Shown one piece after another: positions 26,739-62,279 of a stretch of DNA of 64,000 nt (positions within the stretch are counted from its first letter, which is position 1; each line of letters begins with the position of its first letter). The notes below the pieces were generated by a model. The model made no database searches, was not told the origin of the DNA, and was given only the letters and a program-made list of their open reading frames with translations. The position numbers and the translations under genes are program-made. This stretch comes from Alphaproteobacteria bacterium (GTDB taxonomy: Bacteria; Pseudomonadota; Alphaproteobacteria; UBA828): NCBI GenBank assembly GCA_963422645.2, contig CAXXVO010000008.1:320001-384000 (forward strand), written 5' to 3'.

Positions 26739-28570
26739 GTAACTGCCCAGGTTCTTGCTGTGAAAATTCTCTGGGATTCGGCACAACGCTACCCACGCGA
26801 CGCCCGTGTGCTCCTCTGGGGTCGCCGGGTTTCACAGCTCACGATGCCCCTCTTGCGGACTGCGACCGGTAAGCTACCCCGATGTGGCCCGAAGTCCGCC
26901 CGCGCGACGGGCACCGATTTTCATTCTATGGGGTGGTCCAGCACGGCGTCGACCATGATCGTTTATGAGAATGGCTCCGCTGTTGGAGAACCCGTGCCAG
27001 GTGAGCTTACGCGCACTTGACGGTGGCGATGAGCCGATCCGATGGGCTGGTCAGGGCTTCGATGATATTCCAGCCCTGCTTTCTGGCGGTGGTGATGACG
27101 CTGCGCAGGATGGCGAAGTTCTCGGCCCCCTGCGCGGACCGGAAGCCCCCGGAGATCTTCTGGCGCAGCTTCATCATCCGAAGGTCGCGCTCGGCCTCGT
27201 TGTTCGTGAACCCGACCTCGAGGTCGATCAGGAACCGGAGCACCGCGCATTTGTGGTCGCGCAGCCTCAAGGCCAGATTGTGACCGATCCTTCGCTTCCG
27301 GCGCTTCTTCCTCTTGCCAGGCGAGAACGGTGGTTGGCTCTCGTGAAAGGCCAGCGCATCGGCGATGATCTCGTCGTATCGGCGCTCGATCAGCGCCACA
27401 AGCCTCGCCGGAACGGCGATATCCTTGTCCAGCGCGATGCGGGCGGCGCGATTGGCTCGGCGCAGGAGCTGCTGCATCCGCCGGGCCCAAGCCTCCCCTT
27501 CGATGTCCACCAGCGCCTGCAACTCCCGCAGGTGATGGGCGTTGCACAGGCCGTGCTCCACCCCTTCCATCGCGAAGTACGGCTTCCAGTGATCGTGCAC
27601 GACGATGCCGGAGACACCCGAGAGCAGGGCGCCGCGCTTGCCGCTGACCCGGTACGCCGCCAGCAGCGGCGTGCAGATCACATGAAGCCACTGCGTCTGA
27701 CCGCCGATCCGCAAGCCGGTCTCGTCCATGTGTTTCACCCGCGCCGTGCCCGCCGCCAGGTCCTGTATGTGCAAGGCCGCGTCCCGCAGCCGCTCGGCCG
27801 CCCTCTCGCTCATCGTCGCCAACGTCGCAGCCGTCACCGGCGCGCCGAAGAGCTCGGCCATCACCTGCGACAGCCGATCCTCCGGCAGGAAGTGAGCGTG
27901 CTGAAGGTAGACCGCCACCCCGGCAATGCGCGGGCCGTACTGCACCGGCGCCGACACCCCGTCGGGGAACGCCGCCCGGGTCACCGTCCCGCAATGCCCG
28001 CAGCACTTGGCATGCGCCCGGTGCTCGGTCACCTCCAGGGGGCTCGGCTCGGGCAGATCGAACACCTGGCGGGCGACGGGCGTTCCCGCCCTGGCCGCGT
28101 CCGAAAGCGGCGAACCGCATCCCTTGCAGGAAGCCGGGACGTGATCCTTCACCCGATCCGGGTGATCGGCGCGGCGCAGCGTCTTGCCCTTGTGGCCGGG
28201 CTGGCCACCGGGCTTGCGGCCCGATTTGCCGCGCAGGCTTCGGGTTCGCCGCTTCGAATTCGGCTTCCTCAGCCCATCGCTCGAAGGCGGCTTGCCGCTG
28301 TTGAGGCCGAGACGGCGCTCCAACTCCTCGATGCGCTCGACGAGACGCGCGACTTGCTCTTCCAGCCGCGCGTTCTGCTGCCGAAGCCAGGCATTTTCCT
28401 CCCGAAGCCGGGCGTTCTCCTCCTCCAGGCGGGCGATCTTCTGCGCGGGCGTTTCGGGCGCTGCTCCCGTCGAAGGGCCGCGCGGCGACTCGGGATTGCT
28501 CATGTCGTTGTTGAGTCATTTCCCGAAATTCCCGTCAAGCCCTTTCCACCAACTCCGAACGAGAAACGCC
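26739..28570 (-). mobile_element. IS66-family element IS-A copy 1 (left 47 bp missing)
   Basis: Right IR GTAACTGCCCAGGT at 26739; matches other IS-A copies up to 28570, where IS-B starts; 9-bp in-frame deletion (AACAGCGGC). Confidence 0.95.
27007..28503 (-). CDS. IS66 transposase (IS-A), the only uninterrupted ORF among the five copies
   Basis: Coiled coil, KPPSSDG, GGQPGH, Zn ribbon, HMDETG, VHDHW, CNAHHLREL, TNNEAER. Confidence 0.93.
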   Translation of the reverse strand: MSNPESPRGPSTGAAPETPAQKIARLEEENARLREENAWLRQQNARLEEQVARLVERIEELERRLGLNSGKPPSSDGLRKPNSKRRTRSLRGKSGRKPGGQPGHKGKTLRRADHPDRVKDHVPASCKGCGSPLSDAARAGTPVARQVFDLPEPSPLEVTEHRAHAKCCGHCGTVTRAAFPDGVSAPVQYGPRIAGVAVYLQHAHFLPEDRLSQVMAELFGAPVTAATLATMSERAAERLRDAALHIQDLAAGTARVKHMDETGLRIGGQTQWLHVICTPLLAAYRVSGKRGALLSGVSGIVVHDHWKPYFAMEGVEHGLCNAHHLRELQALVDIEGEAWARRMQQLLRRANRAARIALDKDIAVPARLVALIERRYDEIIADALAFHESQPPFSPGKRKKRRKRRIGHNLALRLRDHKCAVLRFLIDLEVGFTNNEAERDLRMMKLRQKISGGFRSAQGAENFAILRSVITTARKQGWNIIEALTSPSDRLIATVKCA

Positions 28571-28735
28571 GTAACTGCCCAGGTACCCCCTCTCTCTTAT
28601 GGAACAAGCCAGTTCCTTTTGCGTCAACGCCCCCACGCCGCGGGGGTGCCTACTCTCTTGAGCGCGAGAGGATGATGAACGCCGCGTCGCGAACAAGATG
28701 AGAGGACAGCGATACTCAGGATGAGCCGGAGAAGT

Positions 28736-30274
28736 TCAGGAGCGCAGTATAGGGATCAGCTGCATCGGTTCCGGGTGCGCCAGGATTTGCAGGATGTTCC
28801 AGCCTTGCTTTCGAGCGGTGACGATGACGCTGCGCATTCCGGCGAAGTTGCAGGCGCCTTGCAGGGAGCGGAAGCCGCCTGAGATCTTCTCATGCACTTT
28901 GTTCATACGGATGTCACGCTCCGCCTCGTTATTCGTGAACGGCGTGCGCAGGTCGGTGAGGAAGCGCAGGCAGCCCTCCTTATGCTTTTGAAGGCGGCGC
29001 GCGAGGTTGTGGCCGATGCGGCGTTTCTTTCGCCCTCGCTTTGCGATCTGGAGCGGCGGTTGGGCCTCATGGAAGGCGATGGCTTCTTCGAGGATACGGT
29101 CCCATGCCCTTGAGATGCGGGCCACCAGGGAGGCGGGGACTTGACGGTCTTTCTCACGGGCGAAGCGGGCGGCCCTGCGCGCGCGCTGAAGCAGGCGGTG
29201 CATGCTCGCCGCCCATTCCTCCTTCTCGATGTCGATCAGGGCCTGGAGTTCGCGCAGGTGATGTGCGTTGCAGGCGCCGTGGCGGACGCCCTTGATGGTG
29301 AAGTAGGGGGCGAAGTCGTCGTGGACGAGGATGCCTTTCAGGTTCTTTTCGACATCGCCGCGTCCCTCGCCGATGCGCAGGACGGTGAGCAACGGGGTGC
29401 ACAGCACATGGAGCCAGCGGGTACGGGCGGCGATACGCAGGCCGGTCTCGTCGAGGTGCTTGACCGGCGCCTGCGTGCGGATCAGATCGGCGACATGGTC
29501 GAGGAAGCCCTCGAAGCGCTGCGCTGTGCGCCGGCCCATGGCGGCGATCGTGGCAGTGGAGATGGACACCGCGAAGATGTCGCTCATGAGTTCGGCCAGA
29601 CGCTTCTCGGGCACGAACTGGGCGTACAGCAGGTAACTCACCCAAGCGGTGATGCGAGGGCCGTACTGGACCGGGGCGGTGACGCCCGGCGGGAAGGCGG
29701 CTCGTGTCAGCGTGCCGCATGCGCCGCAGAGGCAGCGATGGGCGCGGTGTTCGGTGACCTCGAGAGGCTGCGGCTCGGGTACGTCGAAGACCTGCCGACA
29801 GGCGGGCGCGCCTTGCCGGTCGGCGTCCGAGAGCTCGACGCCACAGCCGGAACAGGTGGAGGGGTGGTGATCGACGACACGGTCCGGGCTGTCGCTCCGC
29901 GCGAGGGTGGTTCCCTTGTGGCCGGGCTGGCCGCCACTGGGCCCGCCGGACTTTCCGCGCTGGCTTTGGGTGCGCCTCTGGGCTCCGCTTTTCTTCTTGA
30001 GCCCGTCGCTGGCGGGGGGCTTGCTGCTTGTGGTGCTGTTGAGGGCCGCGCTGCGCTCGAGTTCGGCGATGCGCTCGCGCAGGGCCGCGTTCTCCTGCTC
30101 GAGTGCGGCATTTTCCCGGGCGAGCGCGGTGGCTGATCGCAGCAGCCCCTGCCCCCATTCCCGGACGGCAACGACGACAGTGGTTGCGAGGGATGATGGC
30201 TCGAGAAGCTCCTTCAGGCAGCAGAAGGCCTCGTTACGGGCGGCGAGGTCTTCGTGCCAGTGCGACACCGTCAC
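28736..30274 (-). CDS. IS66 transposase (IS-B)
   Basis: SSKPPASDG, KHLDETG, VHDDF, CNAHHLREL, FTNNEAERD; GTG start overlaps the MTase stop (GTGA). Confidence 0.9.
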   Translation of the reverse strand: MTVSHWHEDLAARNEAFCCLKELLEPSSLATTVVVAVREWGQGLLRSATALARENAALEQENAALRERIAELERSAALNSTTSSKPPASDGLKKKSGAQRRTQSQRGKSGGPSGGQPGHKGTTLARSDSPDRVVDHHPSTCSGCGVELSDADRQGAPACRQVFDVPEPQPLEVTEHRAHRCLCGACGTLTRAAFPPGVTAPVQYGPRITAWVSYLLYAQFVPEKRLAELMSDIFAVSISTATIAAMGRRTAQRFEGFLDHVADLIRTQAPVKHLDETGLRIAARTRWLHVLCTPLLTVLRIGEGRGDVEKNLKGILVHDDFAPYFTIKGVRHGACNAHHLRELQALIDIEKEEWAASMHRLLQRARRAARFAREKDRQVPASLVARISRAWDRILEEAIAFHEAQPPLQIAKRGRKKRRIGHNLARRLQKHKEGCLRFLTDLRTPFTNNEAERDIRMNKVHEKISGGFRSLQGACNFAGMRSVIVTARKQGWNILQILAHPEPMQLIPILRS

Positions 30275-30936
30275 GTGTCTTCGGCCTCGACGGCCATCAT
30301 GGCGGCGAGCACGGCGAGGCGTTCGCCCGGCGGCAAGGCCTGGTAGCGCCGGCCCCAGTTGGCTGCCTTGCGCTTGATGCGCTGGCGGTCGGTGAAGTTC
30401 CGGCCTGCGTGGCTGGCCCAATGCATCCGGTCGGGGGCGTAGTTGAACCAGACGACCTCGGTTCGCACCAGACCCTGGGTCGTGACCTGCAGCGCCAGCC
30501 GGCGCCATCCCGCCAGCACCTCGTCATAGAGCGCCGACGGATGGCCCGAGATCATGACCTGGCAGGGCAGAGCCTTGAGCAGCGCGAGAAGCGCGACGTG
30601 GCCGGCCTCCTCGTACTCGAAGCGGTAGCGCTGCGCCGAGCGGCGGGTCGCGTGCAGATAGGGCGGATCGCTGTAAACCAGCTCCGGGCCCAGGAACGGG
30701 AACGAGGCCAGGAAGTCATGGGCACAGCCGTGAACCAGATCGACCGGGTAGTCGCAGACGAAGGCCTCGAGCGCCTGCGCATCGCGGTCGATGCCGATCG
30801 AACGCACGGCCGGCGGCTTGCGCTTCGTCAGCGCCCCGCCCCCAAGGTGGCTTTCGATGTAGACGGAGTGCGGCGGCATCAGCGCAATCAGCGCTTGGCA
30901 CAGACCTGCTGTCGCCTTCGAGCCGAAATACCCCAT
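30271..30936 (-). CDS. Compact Dam-like N6-adenine DNA methyltransferase (IS-B passenger)
   Basis: GYFGSK, YIESHLGGGA (motif I), GIDRD, YSDPPY (motif IV); 221 aa. Confidence 0.85.
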   Translation of the reverse strand: MGYFGSKATAGLCQALIALMPPHSVYIESHLGGGALTKRKPPAVRSIGIDRDAQALEAFVCDYPVDLVHGCAHDFLASFPFLGPELVYSDPPYLHATRRSAQRYRFEYEEAGHVALLALLKALPCQVMISGHPSALYDEVLAGWRRLALQVTTQGLVRTEVVWFNYAPDRMHWASHAGRNFTDRQRIKRKAANWGRRYQALPPGERLAVLAAMMAVEAEDT

Positions 30937-31609
30937 GGACCGCTCCCGTCACGCGAGAGAGCAGTCCATAGTCCCGCAACTCTATGAGGTCAAGAACCAA
31001 TCGCGGTGGCAGAACCAGGCCGCGGCCGCCGCCATAATCACCGTCCTCAACTCAGGATTGGGGTACCTGGGTAGTTACCATATATTTAGTCAGTTAGGCG
31101 ATGAACTTCATCCGATGAGACAATATCAATGTCCTCCGTAATCGTCGAACGGATCGAGTTGCTGGCGATCGGGCCCGATGGCGAGAGGGTGACGTGGTCG
31201 TCGCACCTCGGGCCCATGTACGAGGCGCTGATCGTGGCGCGGCTCTTCCTCTCCAATGGCGTGGAGGCCATTGCCGGTACGACGACCTATACGGAACACG
31301 AGTTCGACAAGACTGCGTACTCTGCTGCCAACCTGATGGCGCCATTCGTGCTCGGGCGAGACGCATTCGACACCCACGCTGCTTACAAAGACATGCGAAA
31401 GCGCTACGTCCCTCTTGGGCATGCGGCGCTTTCCCTCTTCGACATTGCCCTGCACGACGGCAAAGCGAAGTCTGAGAACCTGCCGATATATCGAATGCTG
31501 GGCGCCGCCCGGCACGAAATCCCCGCCTATGCGTCGAGCCCGTTATTGTCTACAGATCAAGCCTATATCGAGTACTGCCGTCAAGTACTTGAGCTGGGCT
31601 ATCGGGCGA

Positions 31610-40456: not shown

Positions 40457-42345
40457 GTAACTGCCCAGGTCGTCTGATTTGTCATTTTGGGCCAGTGGAT
40501 TGATGCGTTTCTCGTTCGGAGTTGGTGGAAAGGGCTTGACGGGAATTTCGGGAAATGACTCAACAACGACATGAGCAATCCCGAGTCGCCGCGCGGCCCT
40601 TCGACGGGAGCAGCGCCCGAAACGCCCGCGCAGAAGATCGCCCGCCTGGAGGAGGAGAACGCCCGGCTTCGGGAGGAAAATGCCTGGCTTCGGCAGCAGA
40701 ACGCGCGGCTGGAAGAGCAAGTCGCGCGTCTCGTCGAGCGCATCGAGGAGTTGGAGCGCCGTCTCGGCCTCAACAGCGGCAACAGCGGCAAGCCGCCTTC
40801 GAGCGATGGGCTGAGGAAGCCGAATTCGAAGCGGCGAACCCGAAGCCTGCGCGGCAAATCGGGCCGCAAGCCCGGTGGCCAGCCCGGCCACAAGGGCAAG
40901 ACGCTGCGCCGCGCCGATCACCCGGATCGGGTGAAGGATCACGTCCCGGCTTCCTGCAAGGGATGCGGTTCGCCGCTTTCGGACGCGGCCAGGGCGGGAA
41001 CGCCCGTCGCCCGCCAGGTGTTCGATCTGCCCGAGCCGAGCCCCCTGGAGGTGACCGAGCACCGGGCGCATGCCAAGTGCTGCGGGCATTGCGGGACGGT
41101 GACCCGGGCGGCGTTCCCCGACGGGGTGTCGGCGCCGGTGCAGTACGGCCCGCGCATTGCCGGGGTGGCGGTCTACCTTCAGCACGCTCACTTCCTGCCG
41201 GAGGATCGGCTGTCGCAGGTGATGGCCGAGCTCTTCGGCGCGCCGGTGACGGCTGCGACGTTGGCGACGATGAGCGAGAGGGCGGCCGAGCGGCTTGCGG
41301 GACGCGGCCTTGCACATACAGGACCTGGCGGCGGGCACGGCGCGGGTGAAACACATGGACGAGACCGGCTTGCGGATCGGCGGTCAGACGCAGTGGCTTC
41401 ATGTGATCTGCACGCCGCTGCTGGCGGCGTACCGGGTCAGCGGCAAGCGCGGCGCCCTGCTCTCGGGTGTCTCCGGCATCGTCGTGCACGATCACTGGAA
41501 GCCGTACTTCGCGATGGAAGGGGTGGAGCACGGCCTGTGCAACGCCCATCACCTGCGGGAGTTGCAGGCGCTGGTGGACATCGAAGGGGAGGCTTGGGCC
41601 CGGCGGATGCAGCAGCTCCTGCGCCGAGCCAATCGCGCCGCCCGCATCGCGCTGGACAAGGATATCGCCGTTCCGGCGAGGCTTGTGGCGCTGATCGAGC
41701 GCCGATACGACGAGATCATCGCCGATGCGCTGGCCTTTCACGAGAGCCAACCACCGTTCTCGCCTGGCAAGAGGAAGAAGCGCCGGAAGCGAAGGATCGG
41801 TCACAATCTGGCCTTGAGGCTGCGCGACCACAAATGCGCGGTGCTCCGGTTCCTGATCGACCTCGAGGTCGGGTTCACGAACAACGAGGCCGAGCGCGAC
41901 CTTCGGATGATGAAGCTGCGCCAGAAGATCTCCGGGGGCTTCCGGTCCGCGCAGGGGGCCGAGAACTTCGCCATCCTGCGCAGCGTCATCACCACCGCCA
42001 GAAAGCAGGGCTGGAATATCATCGAAGCCCTGACCAGCCCATCGGATCGGCTCATCGCCACCGTCAAGTGCGCGTAAGCTCACCTGGCACGGGTTCTCCA
42101 ACAGCGGAGCCATTCTCATAAACGATCATGGTCGACGCCGTGCTGGACCACCCCATAGAATGAAAATCGGTGCCCGTCGCGCGGGCGGACTTCGGGCCAC
42201 ATCGGGGTAGCTTACCGGTCGCAGTCCGCAAGAGGGGCATCGTGAGCTGTGAAACCCGGCGACCACAGAGGAGCACACGGGCGTCGCGTGGGTAGCGTTG
42301 TGCCGAATCCCAGAGAATTTTCACAGCAAGAACCTGGGCAGTTAC
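40457..42345 (+). mobile_element. IS-A copy 2 (both ends intact, frameshifted transposase)
   Basis: GTAACTGCCCAGGT...ACCTGGGCAGTTAC, 1889 bp; flanks CTTGCGAT/CATTTGTT do not match. Confidence 0.96.
40571..42077 (+). pseudogene. IS66 transposase with +1 frameshift
   Basis: Extra T at 41295-96 (CGGCTTGCGG versus CGGCTGCGG in other copies). Confidence 0.9.
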
Positions 42346-49045: not shown

Positions 49046-50359
49046 GTAACTGCCCAGGTCGTCTGATTTGTCATTTTGGGCCAGTGGATTGAGGCGTTTC
49101 TCGTTCGGAGTTGGTGGAAAGGGCTTGACGGGAATTTCGGGAAATGACTCAACAACGACATGAGCAATCCCGAGTCGCCGCGCGGCCCTTCGACGGGAGC
49201 AGCGCCCGAAACGCCCGCGCAGAAGATCGCCCGCCTGGAGGAGGAGAACGCCCGGCTTCGGGAGGAAAATGCCTGGCTTCGGCAGCAGAACGCGCGGCTG
49301 GAAGAGCAAGTCGCGCGTCTCGTCGAGCGCATCGAGGAGTTGGAGCGCCGTCTCGGCCTCAACAGCGGCAACAGCGGCAAGCCGCCTTCGAGCGATGGGC
49401 TGAGGAAGCCGAATTCGAAGCGGCGAACCCGAAGCCTGCGCGGCAAATCGGGCCGCAAGCCCGGTGGCCAGCCCGGCCACAAGGGCAAGACGCTGCGCCG
49501 CGCCGATCACCCGGATCGGGTGAAGGATCACGTCCCGGCTTCCTGCAAGGGATGCGGTTCGCCGCTTTCGGACGCGGCCAGGGCGGGAACGCCCGTCGCC
49601 CGCCAGGTGTTCGATCTGCCCGAGCCGAGCCCCCTGGAGGTGACCGAGCACCGGGCGCATGCCAAGTGCTGCGGGCATTGCGGGACGGTGACCCGGGCGG
49701 CGTTCCCCGACGGGGTGTCGGCGCCGGTGCAGTACGGCCCGCGCATTGCCGGGGTGGCGGTCTACCTTCAGCACGCTCACTTCCTGCCGGAGGATCGGCT
49801 GTCGCAGGTGATGGCCGAGCTCTTCGGCGCGCCGGTGACGGCTGCGACGTTGGCGACGATGAGCGAGAGGGCGGCCGAGCGGCTGCGGGACGCGGCCTTG
49901 CACATACAGGACCTGGCGGCGGGCACGGCGCGGGTGAAACACATGGACGAGACCGGCTTGCGGATCGGCGGTCAGACGCAGTGGCTTCATGTGATCTGCA
50001 CGCCGCTGCTGGCGGCGTACCGGGTCAGCGGCAAGCGCGGCGCCCTGCTCTCGGGTGTCTCCGGCATCGTCGTGCACGATCACTGGAAGCCGTACTTCGC
50101 GATGGAAGGGGTGGAGCACGGCCTGTGCAACGCCCATCACCTGCGGGAGTTGCAGGCGCTGGTGGACATCGAAGGGGAGGCTTGGGCCCGGCGGATGCAG
50201 CAGCTCCTGCGCCGAGCCAATCGCGCCGCCCGCATCGCGCTGGACAAGGATATCGCCGTTCCGGCGAGGCTTGTGGCGCTGATCGAGCGCCGATACGACG
50301 AGATCATCGCCGATGCGCTGGCCTTTCACGAGAGCCAACCACCGTTCTCGCCTGGCAAG
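49046..50359 (+). mobile_element. IS-A copy 3 (left 1314 bp only)
   Basis: Left IR at 49046; identity to IS-A ends at ...CCTGGCAAG (50359). Confidence 0.93.
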
Positions 50360-55907: not shown

Positions 55908-57414
55908 GGCTCGAGGCTCTCCTCTGGTTGAAGAGGCCTCGCCCGGAGGCCTCGCTGGTGTTATGAGCTTTGCAGCCGTCAGCGTACTCGACGACTCCGT
56001 TCTTAATCCGTAACTGCCCAGGTCGTCTGATTTGTCATTTTGGGCCAGTGGATTGAGGCGTTTCTCGTTCGGAGTTGGTGGAAAGGGCTTGACGGGAATT
56101 TCGGGAAATGACTCAACAACGACATGAGCAATCCCGAGTCGCCGCGCGGCCCTTCGACGGGAGCAGCGCCCGAAACGCCCGCGCAGAAGATCGCCCGCCT
56201 GGAGGAGGAGAACGCCCGGCTTCGGGAGGAAAATGCCTGGCTTCGGCAGCAGAACGCGCGGCTGGAAGAGCAAGTCGCGCGTCTCGTCGAGCGCATCGAG
56301 GAGTTGGAGCGCCGTCTCGGCCTCAACAGCGGCAACAGCGGCAAGCCGCCTTCGAGCGATGGGCTGAGGAAGCCGAATTCGAAGCGGCGAACCCGAAGCC
56401 TGCGCGGCAAATCGGGCCGCAAGCCCGGTGGCCAGCCCGGCCACAAGGGCAAGACGCTGCGCCGCGCCGATCACCCGGATCGGGTGAAGGATCACGTCCC
56501 GGCTTCCTGCAAGGGATGCGGTTCGCCGCTTTCGGACGCGGCCAGGGCGGGAACGCCCGTCGCCCGCCAGGTGTTCGATCTGCCCGAGCCGAGCCCCCTG
56601 GAGGTGACCGAGCACCGAGCGCATGCCAAGTGCTGCGGGCATTGCGGGACGGTGACCCGGGCGGCGTTCCCCGACGGGGTGTCGGCGCCGGTGCAGTACG
56701 GCCCGCGCATTGCCGGGGTGGCGGTCTACCTTCAGCACGCTCACTTCCTGCCGGAGGATCGGCTGTCGCAGGTGATGGCCGAGCTCTTCGGCGCGCCGGT
56801 GACGGCTGCGACGTTGGCGACGATGAGCGAGAGGGCGGCCGAGCGGCTGCGGGACGCGGCCTTGCACATACAGGACCTGGCGGCGGGCACGGCGCGGGTG
56901 AAACACATGGACGAGACCGGCTTGCGGATCGGCGGTCAGACGCAGTGGCTTCATGTGATCTGCACGCCGCTGCTGGCGGCGTACCGGGTCAGCGGCAAGC
57001 GCGGCGCCCTGCTCTCGGGTGTCTCCGGCATCGTCGTGCACGATCACTGGAAGCCGTACTTCGCGATGGAAGGGGTGGAGCACGGCCTGTGCAACGCCCA
57101 TCACCTGCGGGAGTTGCAGGCGCTGGTGGACATCGAAGGGGAGGCTTGGGCCCGGCGGATGCAGCAGCTCCTGCGCCGAGCCAATCGCGCCGCCCGCATC
57201 GCGCTGGACAAGGATATCGCCGTTCCGGCGAGGCTTGTGGCGCTGATCGAGCGCCGATACGACGAGATCATCGCCGATGCGCTGGCCTTTCACGAGAGCC
57301 AACCACCGTTCTCGCCTGGCAAGAGGAAGGTAACTACCCAGGTACCCCAATCCTGAGTTGAGGACGGTGATTATGGCGGCGGCCGCGGCCTGGTTCTGCC
57401 ACCGCGATTGGTTC

Positions 57415-57443
57415 TTGACCTCATAGAGTTGCGGGACTATGGA
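57415..57443 (+). promoter_or_regulatory. Putative sigma70 promoter of the IS-B MTase-transposase operon
   Basis: TTGACC-N17-TATGGA followed by GGGAG before ATG 57472. Confidence 0.45.
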
Positions 57444-57471
57444 CTGCTCTCTCGCGTGACGGGAGCGGTCC

Positions 57472-58137
57472 ATGGGGTATTTCGGCTCGAAGGCGACAGC
57501 AGGTCTGTGCCAAGCGCTGATTGCGCTGATGCCGCCGCACTCCGTCTACATCGAAAGCCACCTTGGGGGCGGGGCGCTGATGAAGCGCAAGCCGCCGGCC
57601 GTGCGTTCGATCGGCATCGACCGCGATGCGCAGGCGCTCGAGGCCTTCGTCTGCGACTACCCGGTCGATCTGGTTCACGGCTGTGCCCATGACTTCCTGG
57701 CCTCGTTCCCGTTCCTGGGCCCGGAGCTGGTTTACAGCGATCCGCCCTATCTGCACGCGACCCGCCGCTCGGCGCAGCGCTACCGCTTCGAGTACGAGGA
57801 GGCCGGCCACGTCGCGCTTCTCGCGCTGCTCAAGGCTCTGCCCTGCCAGGTCATGATCTCGGGCCATCCGTCGGCGCTCTATGACGAGGTGCTGGCGGGA
57901 TGGCGCCGGCTGGCGCTGCAGGTCACGACCCAGGGTCTGGTGCGAACCGAGGTCGTCTGGTTCAACTACGCCCCCGACCGGATGCATTGGGCCAGCCACG
58001 CAGGCCGGAACTTCACCGACCGCCAGCGCATCAAGCGCAAGGCAGCCAACTGGGGCCGGCGCTACCAGGCCTTGCCGCCGGGCGAACGCCTCGCCGTGCT
58101 CGCCGCCATGATGGCCGTCGAGGCCGAAGACACGTGA
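57472..58137 (+). CDS. Compact Dam-like N6-adenine DNA methyltransferase (IS-B passenger)
   Basis: Motif I ESHLGGGA, motif IV DPPY; differs from the 30271-30936 copy by one residue (M/T). Confidence 0.85.
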   Translation: MGYFGSKATAGLCQALIALMPPHSVYIESHLGGGALMKRKPPAVRSIGIDRDAQALEAFVCDYPVDLVHGCAHDFLASFPFLGPELVYSDPPYLHATRRSAQRYRFEYEEAGHVALLALLKALPCQVMISGHPSALYDEVLAGWRRLALQVTTQGLVRTEVVWFNYAPDRMHWASHAGRNFTDRQRIKRKAANWGRRYQALPPGERLAVLAAMMAVEAEDT

Positions 58138-59672
58138 CGGTGTCGCACTGGCACGAAGACCTCGCCGCCCGTAACGAGGCCTTCTGCTGCCTGAAGGAGC
58201 TTCTCGAGCCATCATCCCTCGCAACCACTGTCGTCGTTGCCGTCCGGGAATGGGGGCAGGGGCTGCTGCGATCAGCCACCGCGCTCGCCCGGGAAAATGC
58301 CGCACTCGAGCAGGAGAACGCGGCCCTGCGCGAGCGCATCGCCGAACTCGAGCGCAGCGCGGCCCTCAACAGCACCACAAGCAGCAAGCCCCCCGCCAGC
58401 GACGGGCTCAAGAAGAAAAGCGGAGCCCAGAGGCGCACCCAAAGCCAGCGCGGAAAGTCCGGCGGGCCCAGTGGCGGCCAGCCCGGCCACAAGGGAACCA
58501 CCCTCGCGCGGAGCGACAGCCCGGACCGTGTCGTCGATCACCACCCCTCCACCTGTTCCGGCTGTGGCGTCGAGCTCTCGGACGCCGACCGGCAAGGCGC
58601 GCCCGCCTGTCGGCAGGTCTTCGACGTACCCGAGCCGCAGCCTCTCGAGGTCACCGAACACCGCGCCCATCGCTGCCTCTGCGGCGCATGCGGCACGCTG
58701 ACACGAGCCGCCTTCCCGCCGGGCGTCACCGCCCCGGTCCAGTACGGCCCTCGCATCACCGCTTGGGTGAGTTACCTGCTGTACGCCCAGTTCGTGCCCG
58801 AGAAGCGTCTGGCCGAACTCATGAGCGACATCTTCGCGGTGTCCATCTCCACTGCCACGATCGCCGCCATGGGCCGGCGCACAGCGCAGCGCTTCGAGGG
58901 CTTCCTCGACCATGTCGCCGATCTGATCCGCACGCAGGCGCCGGTCAAGCACCTCGACGAGACCGGCCTGCGTATCGCCGCCCGTACCCGCTGGCTCCAT
59001 GTGCTGTGCACCCCGTTGCTCACCGTCCTGCGCATCGGCGAGGGACGCGGCGATGTCGAAAAGAACCTGAAAGGCATCCTCGTCCACGACGACTTCGCCC
59101 CCTACTTCACCATCAAGGGCGTCCGCCACGGCGCCTGCAACGCACATCACCTGCGCGAACTCCAGGCCCTGATCGACATCGAGAAGGAGGAATGGGCGGC
59201 GAGCATGCACCGCCTGCTTCAGCGCGCGCGCAGGGCCGCCCGCTTCGCCCGTGAGAAAGACCGTCAAGTCCCCGCCTCCCTGGTGGCCCGCATCTCAAGG
59301 GCATGGGACCGTATCCTCGAAGAAGCCATCGCCTTCCATGAGGCCCAACCGCCGCTCCAGATCGCAAAGCGAGGGCGAAAGAAACGCCGCATCGGCCACA
59401 ACCTCGCGCGCCGCCTTCAAAAGCATAAGGAGGGCTGCCTGCGCTTCCTCACCGACCTGCGCACGCCGTTCACGAATAACGAGGCGGAGCGTGACATCCG
59501 TATGAACAAAGTGCATGAGAAGATCTCAGGCGGCTTCCGCTCCCTGCAAGGCGCCTGCAACTTCGCCGGAATGCGCAGCGTCATCGTCACCGCTCGAAAG
59601 CAAGGCTGGAACATCCTGCAAATCCTGGCGCACCCGGAACCGATGCAGCTGATCCCTATACTGCGCTCCTGA
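58134..59672 (+). CDS. IS66 transposase (IS-B), 512 aa
   Basis: GTGA overlap with the MTase stop; complete D-D-E motifs (LDETG, VHDDF, NNEAER). Confidence 0.9.
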   Translation: MTVSHWHEDLAARNEAFCCLKELLEPSSLATTVVVAVREWGQGLLRSATALARENAALEQENAALRERIAELERSAALNSTTSSKPPASDGLKKKSGAQRRTQSQRGKSGGPSGGQPGHKGTTLARSDSPDRVVDHHPSTCSGCGVELSDADRQGAPACRQVFDVPEPQPLEVTEHRAHRCLCGACGTLTRAAFPPGVTAPVQYGPRITAWVSYLLYAQFVPEKRLAELMSDIFAVSISTATIAAMGRRTAQRFEGFLDHVADLIRTQAPVKHLDETGLRIAARTRWLHVLCTPLLTVLRIGEGRGDVEKNLKGILVHDDFAPYFTIKGVRHGACNAHHLRELQALIDIEKEEWAASMHRLLQRARRAARFAREKDRQVPASLVARISRAWDRILEEAIAFHEAQPPLQIAKRGRKKRRIGHNLARRLQKHKEGCLRFLTDLRTPFTNNEAERDIRMNKVHEKISGGFRSLQGACNFAGMRSVIVTARKQGWNILQILAHPEPMQLIPILRS

Positions 59673-60390
59673 ACTTCTCCGGCTCATCCTGAGTATCGCT
59701 GTCCTCTCATCTTGTTCGCGACGCGGCGTTCATCATCCTCTCGCGCTCAAGAGAGTAGGCACCCCCGCGGCGTGGGGGCGTTGACGCAAAAGGAACTGGC
59801 TTGTTCCATAAGAGAGAGGGGGTACCTGGGCAGTTACAGAGGAAGAAGCGCCGGAAGCGAAGGATCGGTCACAATCTGGCCTTGAGGCTGCGCGACCACA
59901 AATGCGCGGTGCTCCGGTTCCTGATCGACCTCGAGGTCGGGTTCACGAACAACGAGGCCGAGCGCGACCTTCGGATGATGAAGCTGCGCCAGAAGATCTC
60001 CGGGGGCTTCCGGTCCGCGCAGGGGGCCGAGAACTTCGCCATCCTGCGCAGCGTCATCACCACCGCCAGAAAGCAGGGCTGGAATATCATCGAAGCCCTG
60101 ACCAGCCCATCGGATCGGCTCATCGCCACCGTCAAGTGCGCGTAAGCTCACCTGGCACGGGTTCTCCAACAGCGGAGCCATTCTCATAAACGATCATGGT
60201 CGACGCCGTGCTGGACCACCCCATAGAATGAAAATCGGTGCCCGTCGCGCGGACGGACTTCGGGCCACATCGGGGTAGCTTACCGGTCGCAGTCCGCAAG
60301 AGGGGCATCGTGAGCTGTGAAACCCGGCGACCACAGAGGAGCACACGGGCGTCGCGTGGGTAGCGTTGTGCCGAATCCCAGAGAATTTTT

Positions 60391-62279
60391 GTAACTGCCC
60401 AGGTCGTCTGATTTGTCATTTTGGGCCAGTGGATTGAGGCGTTTCTCGTTCGGAGTTGGTGGAAAGGGCTTGACGGGAATTTCGGGAAATGACTCAACAA
60501 CGACATGAGCAATCCCGAGTCGCCGCGCGGCCCTTCGACGGGAGCAGCGCCCGAAACGCCCGCGCAGAAGATCGCCCGCCTGGAGGAGGAGAACGCCCGG
60601 CTTCGGGAGGAAAATGCCTGGCTTCGGCAGCAGAACGCGCGGCTGGAAGAGCAAGTCGCGCGTCTCGTCGAGCGCATCGAGGAGTTGGAGCGCCGTCTCG
60701 GCCTCAACAGCGGCAACAGCGTCAAGCCGCCTTCGAGCGATGGGCTGAGGAAGCCGAATTCGAAGCGGCGAACCCGAAGCCTGCGCGGCAAATCGGGCCG
60801 CAAGCCCGGTGGCCAGCCCGGCCACAAGGGCAAGACGCTGCGCCGCGCCGATCACCCGGATCGGGTGAAGGATCACGTCCCGGCTTCCTGCAAGGGATGC
60901 GGTTCGCCGCTTTCGGACGCGGCCAGGGCGGGAACGCCCGTCGCCCGCCAGGTGTTCGATCTGCCCGAGCCGAGCCCCTTGGAGGTGACCGAGCACCGGG
61001 CGCATGCCAAGTGCTGCGGGCATTGCGGGACGGTGACCCGGGCGGCGTTCCCCGACGGGGTGTCGGCGCCGGTGCAGTACGGCCCGCGCATTGCCGGGGT
61101 GGCGGTCTACCTTCAGCACGCTCACTTCCTGCCGGAGGATCGGCTGTCGCAGGTGATGGCCGAGCTCTTCGGCGCGCCGGTGACGGCTGCGACGTTGGCG
61201 ACGATGAGCGAGAGGGCGGCCGAGCGGCTTGCGGGACGCGGCCTTGCACATACAGGACCTGGCGGCGGGCACGGCGCGGGTGAAACACATGGACGAGACC
61301 GGCTTGCGGATCGGCGGTCAGACGCAGTGGCTTCATGTGATCTGCACGCCGCTGCTGGCGGCGTACCGGGTCAGCGGCAAGCGCGGCGCCCTGCTCTCGG
61401 GTGTCTCCGGCATCGTCGTGCACGATCACTGGAAGCCGTACTTCGCGATGGAAGGGGTGGAGCACGGCCTGTGCAACGCCCATCACCTGCGGGAGTTGCA
61501 GGCGCTGGTGGACATCGAAGGGGAGGCTTGGGCCCGGCGGATGCAGCAGCTCCTGCGCCGAGCCAATCGCGCCGCCCGCATCGCGCTGGACAAGGATATC
61601 GCCGTTCCGGCGAGGCTTGTGGCGCTGATCGAGCGCCGATACGACGAGATCATCGCCGATGCGCTGGCCTTTCACGAGAGCCAACCACCGTTCTCGCCTG
61701 GCAAGAGGAAGAAGCGCCGGAAGCGAAGGATCGGTCACAATCCGGCCTTGAGGCTGCGCGACCACAAATGCGCGGTGCTCCGGTTCCTGATCGACCTCGA
61801 GGTCGGGTTCACGAACAACGAGGCCGAGCGCGACCTTCGGATGATGAAGCTGCGCCAGAAGATCTCCGGGGGCTTCCGGTCCGCGCAGGGGGCCGAGAAC
61901 TTCGCCATCCTGCGCAGCGTCATCACCACCGCCAGAAAGCAGGGCTGGAATATCATCGAAGCCCTGACCAGCCCATCGGATCGGCTCATCGCCACCGTCA
62001 AGTGCGCGTAAGCTCACCTGGCACGGGTTCTCCAACAGCGGAGCCATTCTCATAAACGATCATGGTCGACGCCGTGCTGGACCACCCCATAGAATGAAAA
62101 TCGGTGCCCGTCGCGCGGGCGGACTTCGGGCCACATCGGGGTAGCTTACCGGTCGCAGTCCGCAAGAGGGGCATCGTGAGCTGTGAAACCCGGCGACCAC
62201 AGAGGAGCACACGGGCGTCGCGTGGGTAGCGTTGTGCCGAATCCCAGAGAATTTTCACAGCAAGAACCTGGGCAGTTAC
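60391..62279 (+). mobile_element. IS-A copy 5 (both ends intact, frameshifted transposase 60505-62011)
   Basis: 1889 bp; same extra T (61229-30) as copy 2; followed by CTTAATCC, matching the flank left of copy 4. Confidence 0.96.

Follow-up and report, generated by a model that had tools for sequence, protein, structure and literature searches.

Insertion sequences (IS) are usually thought to carry a transposase gene and at most a small family-specific regulator. What, then, is a gene for a Dam-like protein, resembling a DNA adenine methyltransferase, doing inside an IS, immediately upstream of the transposase gene? The question is raised by a 64,000-nucleotide stretch of an alphaproteobacterial genome (GenBank assembly GCA_963422645.2, contig CAXXVO010000008.1, positions 320,001 to 384,000; hereinafter, the window, to which the coordinates below refer unless another contig or locus is named). 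The window contains a 2508-bp element of the IS66 family, here denoted IS-B, at positions 57330-59837, in which the Dam-like gene precedes the transposase gene, tnpC. We find that this gene, along with a conserved promoter-like dyad, occupies the same place in elements of three unrelated transposase families, and that its product is a homolog of the plasmid protein Upf31, an autorepressor. The reading that we favor, and for which we consider the chances about even, is that the Dam-like cassette is a portable autoregulated 5' module that sets the expression of the transposase.

The features of IS-B, in the order of their position, are the following (TSD, target site duplication; IRL and IRR, left and right terminal inverted repeats; ORF, open reading frame; aa, amino acids; TRD, target-recognition domain):

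57322..57329, no strand: left copy of the 8-bp TSD, AGAGGAAG
57330..57348, plus strand: IRL of IS-B, GTAACTACCCAGGTACCCC
57415..57443, plus strand: promoter-like region containing a dyad; it is conserved across all element types, with the geometry of the upf31 operator; its parts, on the same strand, are TTGACC (57415-57420), ATAG (57423-57426), CTAT (57437-57440) and TATGGA (57438-57443)
57442..57470, plus strand: hairpin predicted in the leader, immediately before the start codon and over the likely ribosome-binding site (-17 kcal/mol, z -2.19)
57472..58137, plus strand: Dam-like ORF of the Upf31 family, 221 aa, TRD-less, with motif I (HLGGGA), DPPY and a C-terminal two-helix domain
58134..59672, plus strand: TnpC, 512 aa, DUF6444, zf-IS66 and DDE_Tnp_IS66 domains, GTG start
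59819..59837, minus strand: IRR of IS-B, the reverse complement of which reads GTAACTGCCCAGGTACCCC
59838..59845, no strand: right copy of the 8-bp TSD, AGAGGAAG
28571..31078, minus strand: second copy of IS-B in the window, without a TSD; its lower end abuts sequence of the left end of another IS66 member, IS-A

The inverted repeats of IS-B match over 19 bp with 1 mismatch, and the GTG start codon of tnpC at 58134 overlaps the TGA stop codon of the Dam-like ORF at 58135-58137 (GTGA). The transposase is recognized by the PF03050 model (E 4.4e-41, 141.6 bits, cut-off 23.1) and by NF033517 (289.7 bits, cut-off 180); these scores above the model cut-offs, together with the 8-bp TSD, assign IS-B to the IS66 family. 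Terminal inverted repeats in this family start with GTAA, and termini of this type are present in IS-B, with GTAACTRCCCAGGT at both ends, a motif that occurs 11 times in the window (0.01 expected). IS-B does not belong to the canonical three-gene IS66 type: just two ORFs fit into the element, and there is no tnpA or tnpB upstream of tnpC. Among the ORFs of IS-B, there is no restriction gene. With a non-transposase gene that lies within the inverted repeats and moves with the element, IS-B is a transporter IS (tIS). The second copy in the window differs by a single base, which gives M37T in the Dam-like ORF.

In the host genome (5.9 Mb in 23 contigs, 67% GC), we detected 36 full-length copies of IS-B that are at least 99.7% identical. 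Perfect 8-bp TSDs flank 22 of the 36, at differing AT-rich sites (GC content of 37.5% in the TSDs vs 67% in the genome); in the remaining 14 the flanks do not match, as expected from recombination between copies. Many additional fragments of IS-B are interrupted by other IS. The 221-aa Dam-like ORF is intact in all 36 full-length copies and TnpC is 512 or 513 aa long in 34 of these; altogether, the Dam-like gene has 72 matches in the genome. Pairwise dN/dS values (ratios of nonsynonymous to synonymous substitution rates) are 0.12-0.30 for the Dam-like gene and 0.25-0.34 for TnpC. Thus, IS-B is a highly active IS, to which the Dam-like gene integrally belongs: the gene is mobile with the element and evolves under selection. 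In a search of 40 other genomes, the gene was found in 3 of the 20 from the same genus and in 1 of the 20 from outside the genus, a patchy distribution that fits a recent invader.

Outside the window, the host genome harbors another element of the same design, IS-C (e.g. contig C3 near 145111), in which 2462 bp accommodate a Dam-like gene and an IS66 transposase gene; compared with IS-B, the Dam-like protein is 86% identical and TnpC about 75% identical. IS-C accounts for 20 of the promoter-motif matches in the host genome, and 8-bp TSDs flank 7 of the 8 full copies for which the flanks were checked, the reference copy being without one. Two families of the Dam-like gene plus IS66 design thus coexist in this genome. 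An apparent frameshift in the IS-C transposase proved to be private to one of 20 copies and was discarded; no claim made here rests on it. Two other observations pertain to IS-B itself. The CcrM-type site GANTC does not occur in IS-B, compared with 4.6 occurrences expected at the genome-wide rate. Furthermore, a 2513-bp IS with the ends CAGACTTCCTGAC (e.g. contig C5:167028-169540), of which the host genome contains 242 such end 13-mers, is repeatedly inserted in the 3' part of IS-B, at element positions ~2071-2076, 2093-2100, 2274, 2284 and 2329-2333, and may have a preference for IS66 transposase sequence.

To which family does the Dam-like protein belong? A Pfam search with this protein detected no family at E ≤0.01, hence no PF02086; its score against the NCBIfam dam model (TIGR00571) was 22.1 bits, below the cut-off of 114.85; and a single-sequence search of PDB gave no match. 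A precomputed PF02086 match exists for 6 of the best 120 homologs. By contrast to the single-sequence search, a profile of 62 diverse members aligns in two separate pieces with DpnM (2dpm, E 1.2e-9), E. coli Dam and T4 Dam; the pieces cover the N-terminal half of DpnM, which binds S-adenosylmethionine (SAM), and its DPPY half. The TRD is absent: profile positions 66-82 face DpnM residues 78-184, leaving about 100 residues without a counterpart. An AlphaFold model of the single sequence was unusable (pLDDT, the predicted local confidence score, of 33) and was replaced by a model built on the 62-member alignment (pLDDT 92.2; pTM, the predicted template-modeling score, 0.86), which places two C-terminal helices (residues 181-199 and 203-220) after a Rossmann core. 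In a Foldseek search with this model, the best folds were Dam, DpnM and T4 Dam, with E. coli Dam at the top rank (4rtj, TM-score 0.56). Seven residues, D90, P91, P92, H23, H113, G178 and R184, are invariant in the 62 members, and G32 and G34 are retained in at least 90% of them. The protein thus has the SAM-binding motif I (ESHLGGGA) and the catalytic DPPY motif of the Dam family on a Dam-type fold. It shares the Rossmann core, an N-terminal GxK, motif I and DPPY with Dam, DpnM and T4 Dam, the alpha-class N6-adenine DNA methyltransferases, but differs from these by the lack of the TRD and by the extra C-terminal helix pair. The invariance of the residues for SAM binding and of DPPY makes it probable that some SAM-dependent activity is retained, be it methylation of a narrow set of sites or SAM sensing; a repressor model does not require it.

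The family is large, with 3706 proteins detected at E 1e-3 in 90%-identity clusters and 5660 clusters at the 50%-identity level, and hundreds of metagenome contigs contain the Dam-like gene, as do genomes that carry the labels of eight phyla. The best 120 homologs are all at least 70% identical to the IS-B protein, and many come from contigs of 1-3 kb. Homologs with less than 60% identity include 196 plasmid records, 134 of these from conjugative plasmids, in which the genes stand alone and are annotated as 'DNA adenine methylase' (upf31.0 among them), and 78 phage records. In a tree of 35 proteins, the IS-linked members form one clade (support 98/99), which sets them apart from Upf31.

These results bear out the observations of the original prediction, which had been made from the sequence of the window alone, and support its interpretation in part. 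The prediction had described a 2508-bp unit with 19-bp inverted repeats (1 mismatch) and an exact 8-bp TSD; a 221-aa Dam-like ORF and a complete IS66 transposase joined by the GTGA overlap; a near-identical second copy in the window; a Dam-like gene that takes the place of tnpA and tnpB, moves with the element and has little room for a TRD; and no restriction partner. The possibility raised there that homologs might occur only in prophages does not hold, given the plasmid and IS members of the family.

A homolog that bears on the interpretation is Upf31 of the IncP-1beta plasmid pBP136, to which the IS-B protein is 45% identical over 222 aa, that is, over the full length. The published account of this protein (Elg et al., Mol Biol Evol 2025, PMC11997246; preprint bioRxiv 10.1101/2024.02.05.579024) reports neither GATC methylation nor a signal by SMRT (single-molecule real-time) sequencing in methylation-free E. 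coli. It describes an upf31 transcript level that is about 16-fold lower with intact Upf31, a 68-bp upf31 fragment with promoter activity that is repressed by full-length Upf31, a C-terminal dimerization domain that is necessary for autorepression, and an inverted CAGCATCG repeat as the likely operator (PMC11997246). Because Upf31, the single experimentally studied relative, gave no methylation, methylase activity of the Dam-like protein cannot be assumed. Upf31 resembles the IS-B protein in the HLGGG and DPPY motifs and in the C-terminal helix pair, and its promoter dyad lies as far from the -35 element, and as far from the start codon, as that of IS-B. In plasmid pB3, TTGAC-AGC-ATCG-N10-CGAT is found at -62 from the start of upf31.0 and coincides with the proposed Upf31 operator, and a homolog from a Xanthomonas plasmid is preceded by CATAG-N10-CTATG. 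The common signature, TTGAC-N3-AT(A/C)G-N10-C(T/G)AT located 60-65 nt before the start, is shared by IS-B, the geometry of the dyad being identical to that of the upf31 operator. The differences are that the half-sites are ATCG/CGAT in upf31 vs ATAG/CTAT in IS-B, and that upf31 is a stand-alone gene of the plasmid backbone (pBP136, pB3, R751), located beside parA, without a transposase.

The dyad promoter, TTGAC-N3-ATAG-N10-CTAT, precedes the gene by 60-65 nt in all element types, as well as in solo copies of the gene. Across the 27 unique upstream sequences, there is no variation in TTGAC, in the AG of the left half-site (ATAG) or in CTAT, whereas the 10-bp spacer is free to vary; in metagenomes, the motif was found in 75 of the 77 loci with at least 100 bp of upstream sequence, 68 of these being unique. 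The host genome contains 83 ATAG-N10-CTAT sites, of which 79 are promoters of Dam-like genes. In IS-B, ATAG occurs once, and CTAT occurs at element positions 108, 418, 550 and 2327. A predicted hairpin is located between the -10 element and the start codon in each of the 10 sequences that were folded (z -0.7 to -3.6). Its sequence is group-specific, differing between two IS66 subgroups, and its position is constant; the hairpin may mask the ribosome-binding site.

Which transposases accompany the gene? We examined 80 genome loci from 28 assemblies, many of them multi-copy, so that the loci are not independent, and 80 metagenome loci that were found with an alignment of closer relatives and in which the downstream IS66 transposases were identified by tblastn. 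In 70 of the 80 genome loci, an IS66 TnpC is encoded directly downstream on the same strand; in another 7, the downstream gene on the same strand encodes an IS701-family transposase (NF049999, 309-313 bits, cut-off 170), and the last 3 are decayed copies beside IS630, IS5 or IS91 insertions. The majority of the metagenome loci (64/80) have downstream an IS66 transposase of a second subgroup, 2 have the IS66 N-terminal domains only, 2 have a transposase of the IS1634 family (NF033559, 249 bits, cut-off 100), and one has an IS701-family transposase; 7 contigs are too short to tell, and no transposase was found in 4 loci, one of which adjoins DNA-glycosylase-like genes. Thus, in two IS66 subgroups and in IS701 and IS1634 elements, the gene and its promoter are always located upstream of the transposase gene and are co-oriented with it. 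Among the close relatives of IS-B, the conserved N-terminus of TnpC begins at the stop codon of the upstream gene or a few bases from it.

The element types differ substantially outside the cassette. The second IS66 subgroup has the ends GTAACTACTCACCC and 8-bp TSDs (read in loci L092 and L094); compared with IS-B, TnpC is 26-31% identical and the Dam-like protein near 70%. In the IS701 type, the unit is 2781 bp long, with perfect inverted repeats and 5-bp CTNAG TSDs in all six copies read, and in the 35-protein tree the IS701-linked clade (97/90) is nested in a group (99/98) that holds the IS66 proteins of the IS-B type. Elements of this type (L079:3475-3759, minus strand; L095) additionally contain a conserved divergent ORF of 95 aa upstream of the Dam-like gene, with a weak similarity to DUF3024 (21.4 bits, below the cut-off of 24.9). 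The IS1634 type has inverted repeats of its own and also contains an IS66 left end that is complete (GTAACTACTCACCCC, L169:476-490) and precedes the Dam-like gene by 157 bp, which implies that the captured piece is the left end of an IS66 element. IS66-family tIS with passenger genes are a class catalogued in ISfinder/TnCentral (bioRxiv 10.1101/2021.05.26.445724). As described there, such elements resemble IS-B in that a unit with inverted repeats and a TSD carries a non-transposase gene and moves as one piece; compared with that definition, the extra gene of IS-B is distinguished by its constant location 5' of tnpC in the same orientation, by bringing the sole promoter-like signal, and by its recurrence in IS701- and IS1634-family elements.

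The gene is also found without a partner transposase. At loci L071 and L074 of one Thalassobaculaceae genome, solo copies have only 828 bp in common, made up of a degenerate IRL together with the promoter and the gene; the two ORFs are intact, are 95% identical to each other and show a dN/dS of about 0.33, and different IS (IS630 and an IS5 fragment, respectively) are located behind them. Here, the Dam-like gene outlived its transposase. At metagenome locus L156 (3501-6869), the gene is followed by an ORF for an Ogg-HhH glycosylase-like protein and an ORF for a PfkB/nucleoside 2-deoxyribosyltransferase, with no transposase, a neighborhood that may represent a DNA-modification context.

The window also contains a natural counterpart of IS-B that lacks the cassette. 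The IS-B copy at 57330-59837 disrupts tnpC of IS-A, a single-ORF IS66 element which we take to be a member of the ISBst12-type group and which is represented as follows:

40457..42345, plus strand: intact IS-A, 1889 bp, no Dam-like gene
60391..62279: second intact IS-A in the window, 1889 bp
56010..57329, plus strand: left part of IS-A, with the IRL starting at 56010, split by IS-B
26739-28570: IS-A copy abutting the other copy of IS-B
49046-49059: solo end of IS-A

IS-A and IS-B have the same terminal 14 bp and are 60% identical in TnpC. The two elements share the DUF6444, zf-IS66 and DDE_Tnp_IS66 domains, the absence of tnpA and tnpB, the 8-bp TSD and the GTAACT ends; the difference is that IS-A consists of 1889 bp with one gene, whereas IS-B has a 0.7-kb cassette between the IRL and tnpC. 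The host genome contains 65 full copies of IS-A, all of the design without the Dam-like gene. Because IS-A thrives without it, the Dam-like protein is not part of the transposition chemistry; this dispensability fits a regulatory role.

We therefore favor, at the even level of confidence given at the outset, the following scenario. A single-ORF-type (DUF6444-TnpC) IS66 element would have gained, between the IRL and tnpC, a portable cassette consisting of the dyad promoter, the leader hairpin and the gene that encodes an Upf31-family protein with a Dam fold and no TRD. This protein would bind the dyad over its own -35 and -10 elements, as a dimer formed via the C-terminal two-helix domain if the analogy with Upf31 holds, and repress its own transcription. 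Lacking a separate promoter and starting on the upstream stop codon, tnpC would yield transposase solely from the autoregulated transcript, with translation coupled to that of the Dam-like gene. In a naive cell devoid of the protein, a burst of transposase would be followed by a copy-number-dependent shut-down in trans. The anatomy and mobility of IS-B, the selection acting on the gene, and the conservation of the promoter dyad with a geometry identical to that of the upf31 operator are results of the present analysis; DNA binding, repression and the dependence of the transposase level on it are what we infer. A regulatory module rather than a free passenger is suggested by five observations: the gene keeps its position and orientation before three kinds of transposases; the cassette has a conserved dyad promoter of its own; the protein is homologous to a proven autorepressor; in the IS-B group, the stop codon of the gene overlaps the start of tnpC; and the sister element, IS-A, thrives without the gene. 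There are precedents for control of this kind. IS1 InsA and Tn3 TnpR are repressors encoded by the IS or transposon itself, and IS10 and IS50 are regulated by the host Dam; in all these cases, the expression of the transposase is held down by a factor acting at its promoter. The differences are that the methylase acting on IS10 and IS50 is that of the host and that the IS1 and Tn3 repressors do not have a methyltransferase fold.

Several points weigh against this scenario. The argument for DNA binding and repression is drawn from a 45%-identical homolog and from motif conservation. The phenotype described for Upf31 is tied to the plasmid regulator KorB (PMC11997246), a plasmid protein without a known counterpart in the setting of IS-B. 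A consensus scan calls no sigma-70 promoter in IS-B because the -10 hexamer TATGGA is weak (3/6 match); moreover, the CTAT half-site overlaps the -10 element, so that part of its conservation could be due to promoter function alone. Translational coupling is not general, given spacers of 68 to about 160 bp between the two genes in IS66 elements of the second subgroup and in those of the IS701 and IS1634 types. IS-A, without a Dam-like gene, outnumbers IS-B (65 vs 36 full copies), hence it is not obvious that, in this host, the element gains anything from the gene. Finally, the invariant DPP and the near-invariant glycines of motif I argue for enzyme activity, given that a pure repressor would need no such residues.

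The same residues are the starting point for the view that the gene is a passenger and nothing more. In this case, it would encode an orphan N6-adenine methyltransferase that is active and, for lack of a TRD, low or relaxed in specificity, that plays no role in transposase control and that by its methylation shields the element, a vector plasmid or the host from restriction, or alters the host methylome. The Dam-type fold and motifs, with their invariant catalytic residues, the scores with PADLOC MTase_II (76 bits) and with phrog_56 'DNA methyltransferase' (E 2e-17), and the stand-alone relatives on plasmids, mostly conjugative, and phages, that is, on mobile elements that meet restriction, are all compatible with this view, as is the catalogued class of tIS with unrelated passenger genes. 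Nevertheless, it seems unlikely: the constant upstream, co-oriented placement in three IS families would not be expected of a passenger, the conserved promoter dyad would be left unexplained, a chromosomal IS gains little by anti-restriction, and SMRT sequencing in methylation-free E. coli detected, as published, no methylation by Upf31. It is in this respect that the original prediction, which viewed IS-B as a self-methylating transposon, is weakened, given that a 45%-identical protein for which the published account reports neither GATC methylation nor a SMRT signal acts as an autorepressor. If the protein does methylate, a narrow site within the element, for instance, the ATAG/CTAT dyad over the -10 element, might be its target, in which case full or hemimethylation would alter promoter use or transposase binding and tie transposition to replication. 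The adenines on both strands of each half-site, the conservation of the dyad at a fixed place over the promoter alongside the invariant catalytic motifs, and the precedent of IS10 and IS50 all speak in favor of this model; a long, rare target would also account for the lack of a SMRT signal with Upf31, provided that the strain lacked the site, and the vector in that test, as described, had the gene under a foreign promoter. We nonetheless deem such a self-encoded methylation gate, an idea close to that of the original prediction, quite unlikely, considering that the half-sites of the dyad do not recur at the IS ends and that narrow specificity is required of a protein without a TRD. The target proposed originally, GGTACC, fares worse: it is indeed present in both ends of IS-B and absent from those of IS-A, but it is not conserved, being found in close relatives in the IRL only and missing from the L089 type, and GTAC does not occur in the ends of the second IS66 subgroup, so the role of GGTACC as a self-mark was rejected.

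Two further possibilities extend these themes. The piece comprising the IS66 left end, the promoter and the gene could be a selfish or domesticated cassette that serves the host or itself, hitch-hikes in any IS and is also retained where the transposase has been lost. The two solo copies with intact ORFs, the IS66 left end embedded in the IS1634-type element and the L156 gene beside glycosylase-like and deoxyribosyltransferase genes can be cited in its favor; however, an adjacent transposase is absent in only 3 of the 80 genome loci and 4 of the 80 metagenome loci, and the solo copies, adjoining IS630 and IS5 insertions, look like decay products, which makes this a highly improbable explanation. 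Alternatively, repression and methylation might be combined in a portable epigenetic switch, a TRD-less Dam-fold dimer that represses its promoter and methylates the overlying dyad, an idea that we regard as rather doubtful. Under that model, there would be a burst of transposase upon entry into a naive cell and a brief repeat after each passage of the replication fork, and the module would work with any transposase placed behind it, so that IS66, IS701 and IS1634 elements could each have acquired the cassette independently.

Returning to the autoregulated module, how much of it is new? A literature search, with ISfinder, TnCentral and REBASE outside its scope, found no description of an IS that carries this gene, turning up just the definition of tIS and the papers on Upf31. 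That tIS of the IS66 family are, according to the source cited above, already catalogued lowers the architectural novelty claimed in the original prediction, and the expectation that homologs would lie upstream of IS66 transposases holds for 70 of the 80 genome loci but not as an IS66-specific rule, with IS701 and IS1634 transposases occupying the same place. What appears to be new is that the gene belongs to the Upf31 family, that the dyad promoter is shared and that the gene recurs in IS701 and IS1634 elements. The finding also cautions against labelling these thousands of genes 'DNA adenine methylase'. The conserved dyad provides a direct and cheap experimental handle. If the protein also methylates, IS-B would be, to our knowledge, the first IS with a Dam-like gate of its own, none having been found in print.

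In more general terms, a single gene with a single promoter architecture serves as the 5' module for elements of three unrelated transposase families. Upf31, so far a puzzling protein of IncP-1 plasmids, is placed in a wider family, the common feature of which is an autoregulated promoter. If the protein is a repressor, the cassette would be a transferable device for the control of transposon copy number, built on a methyltransferase fold.

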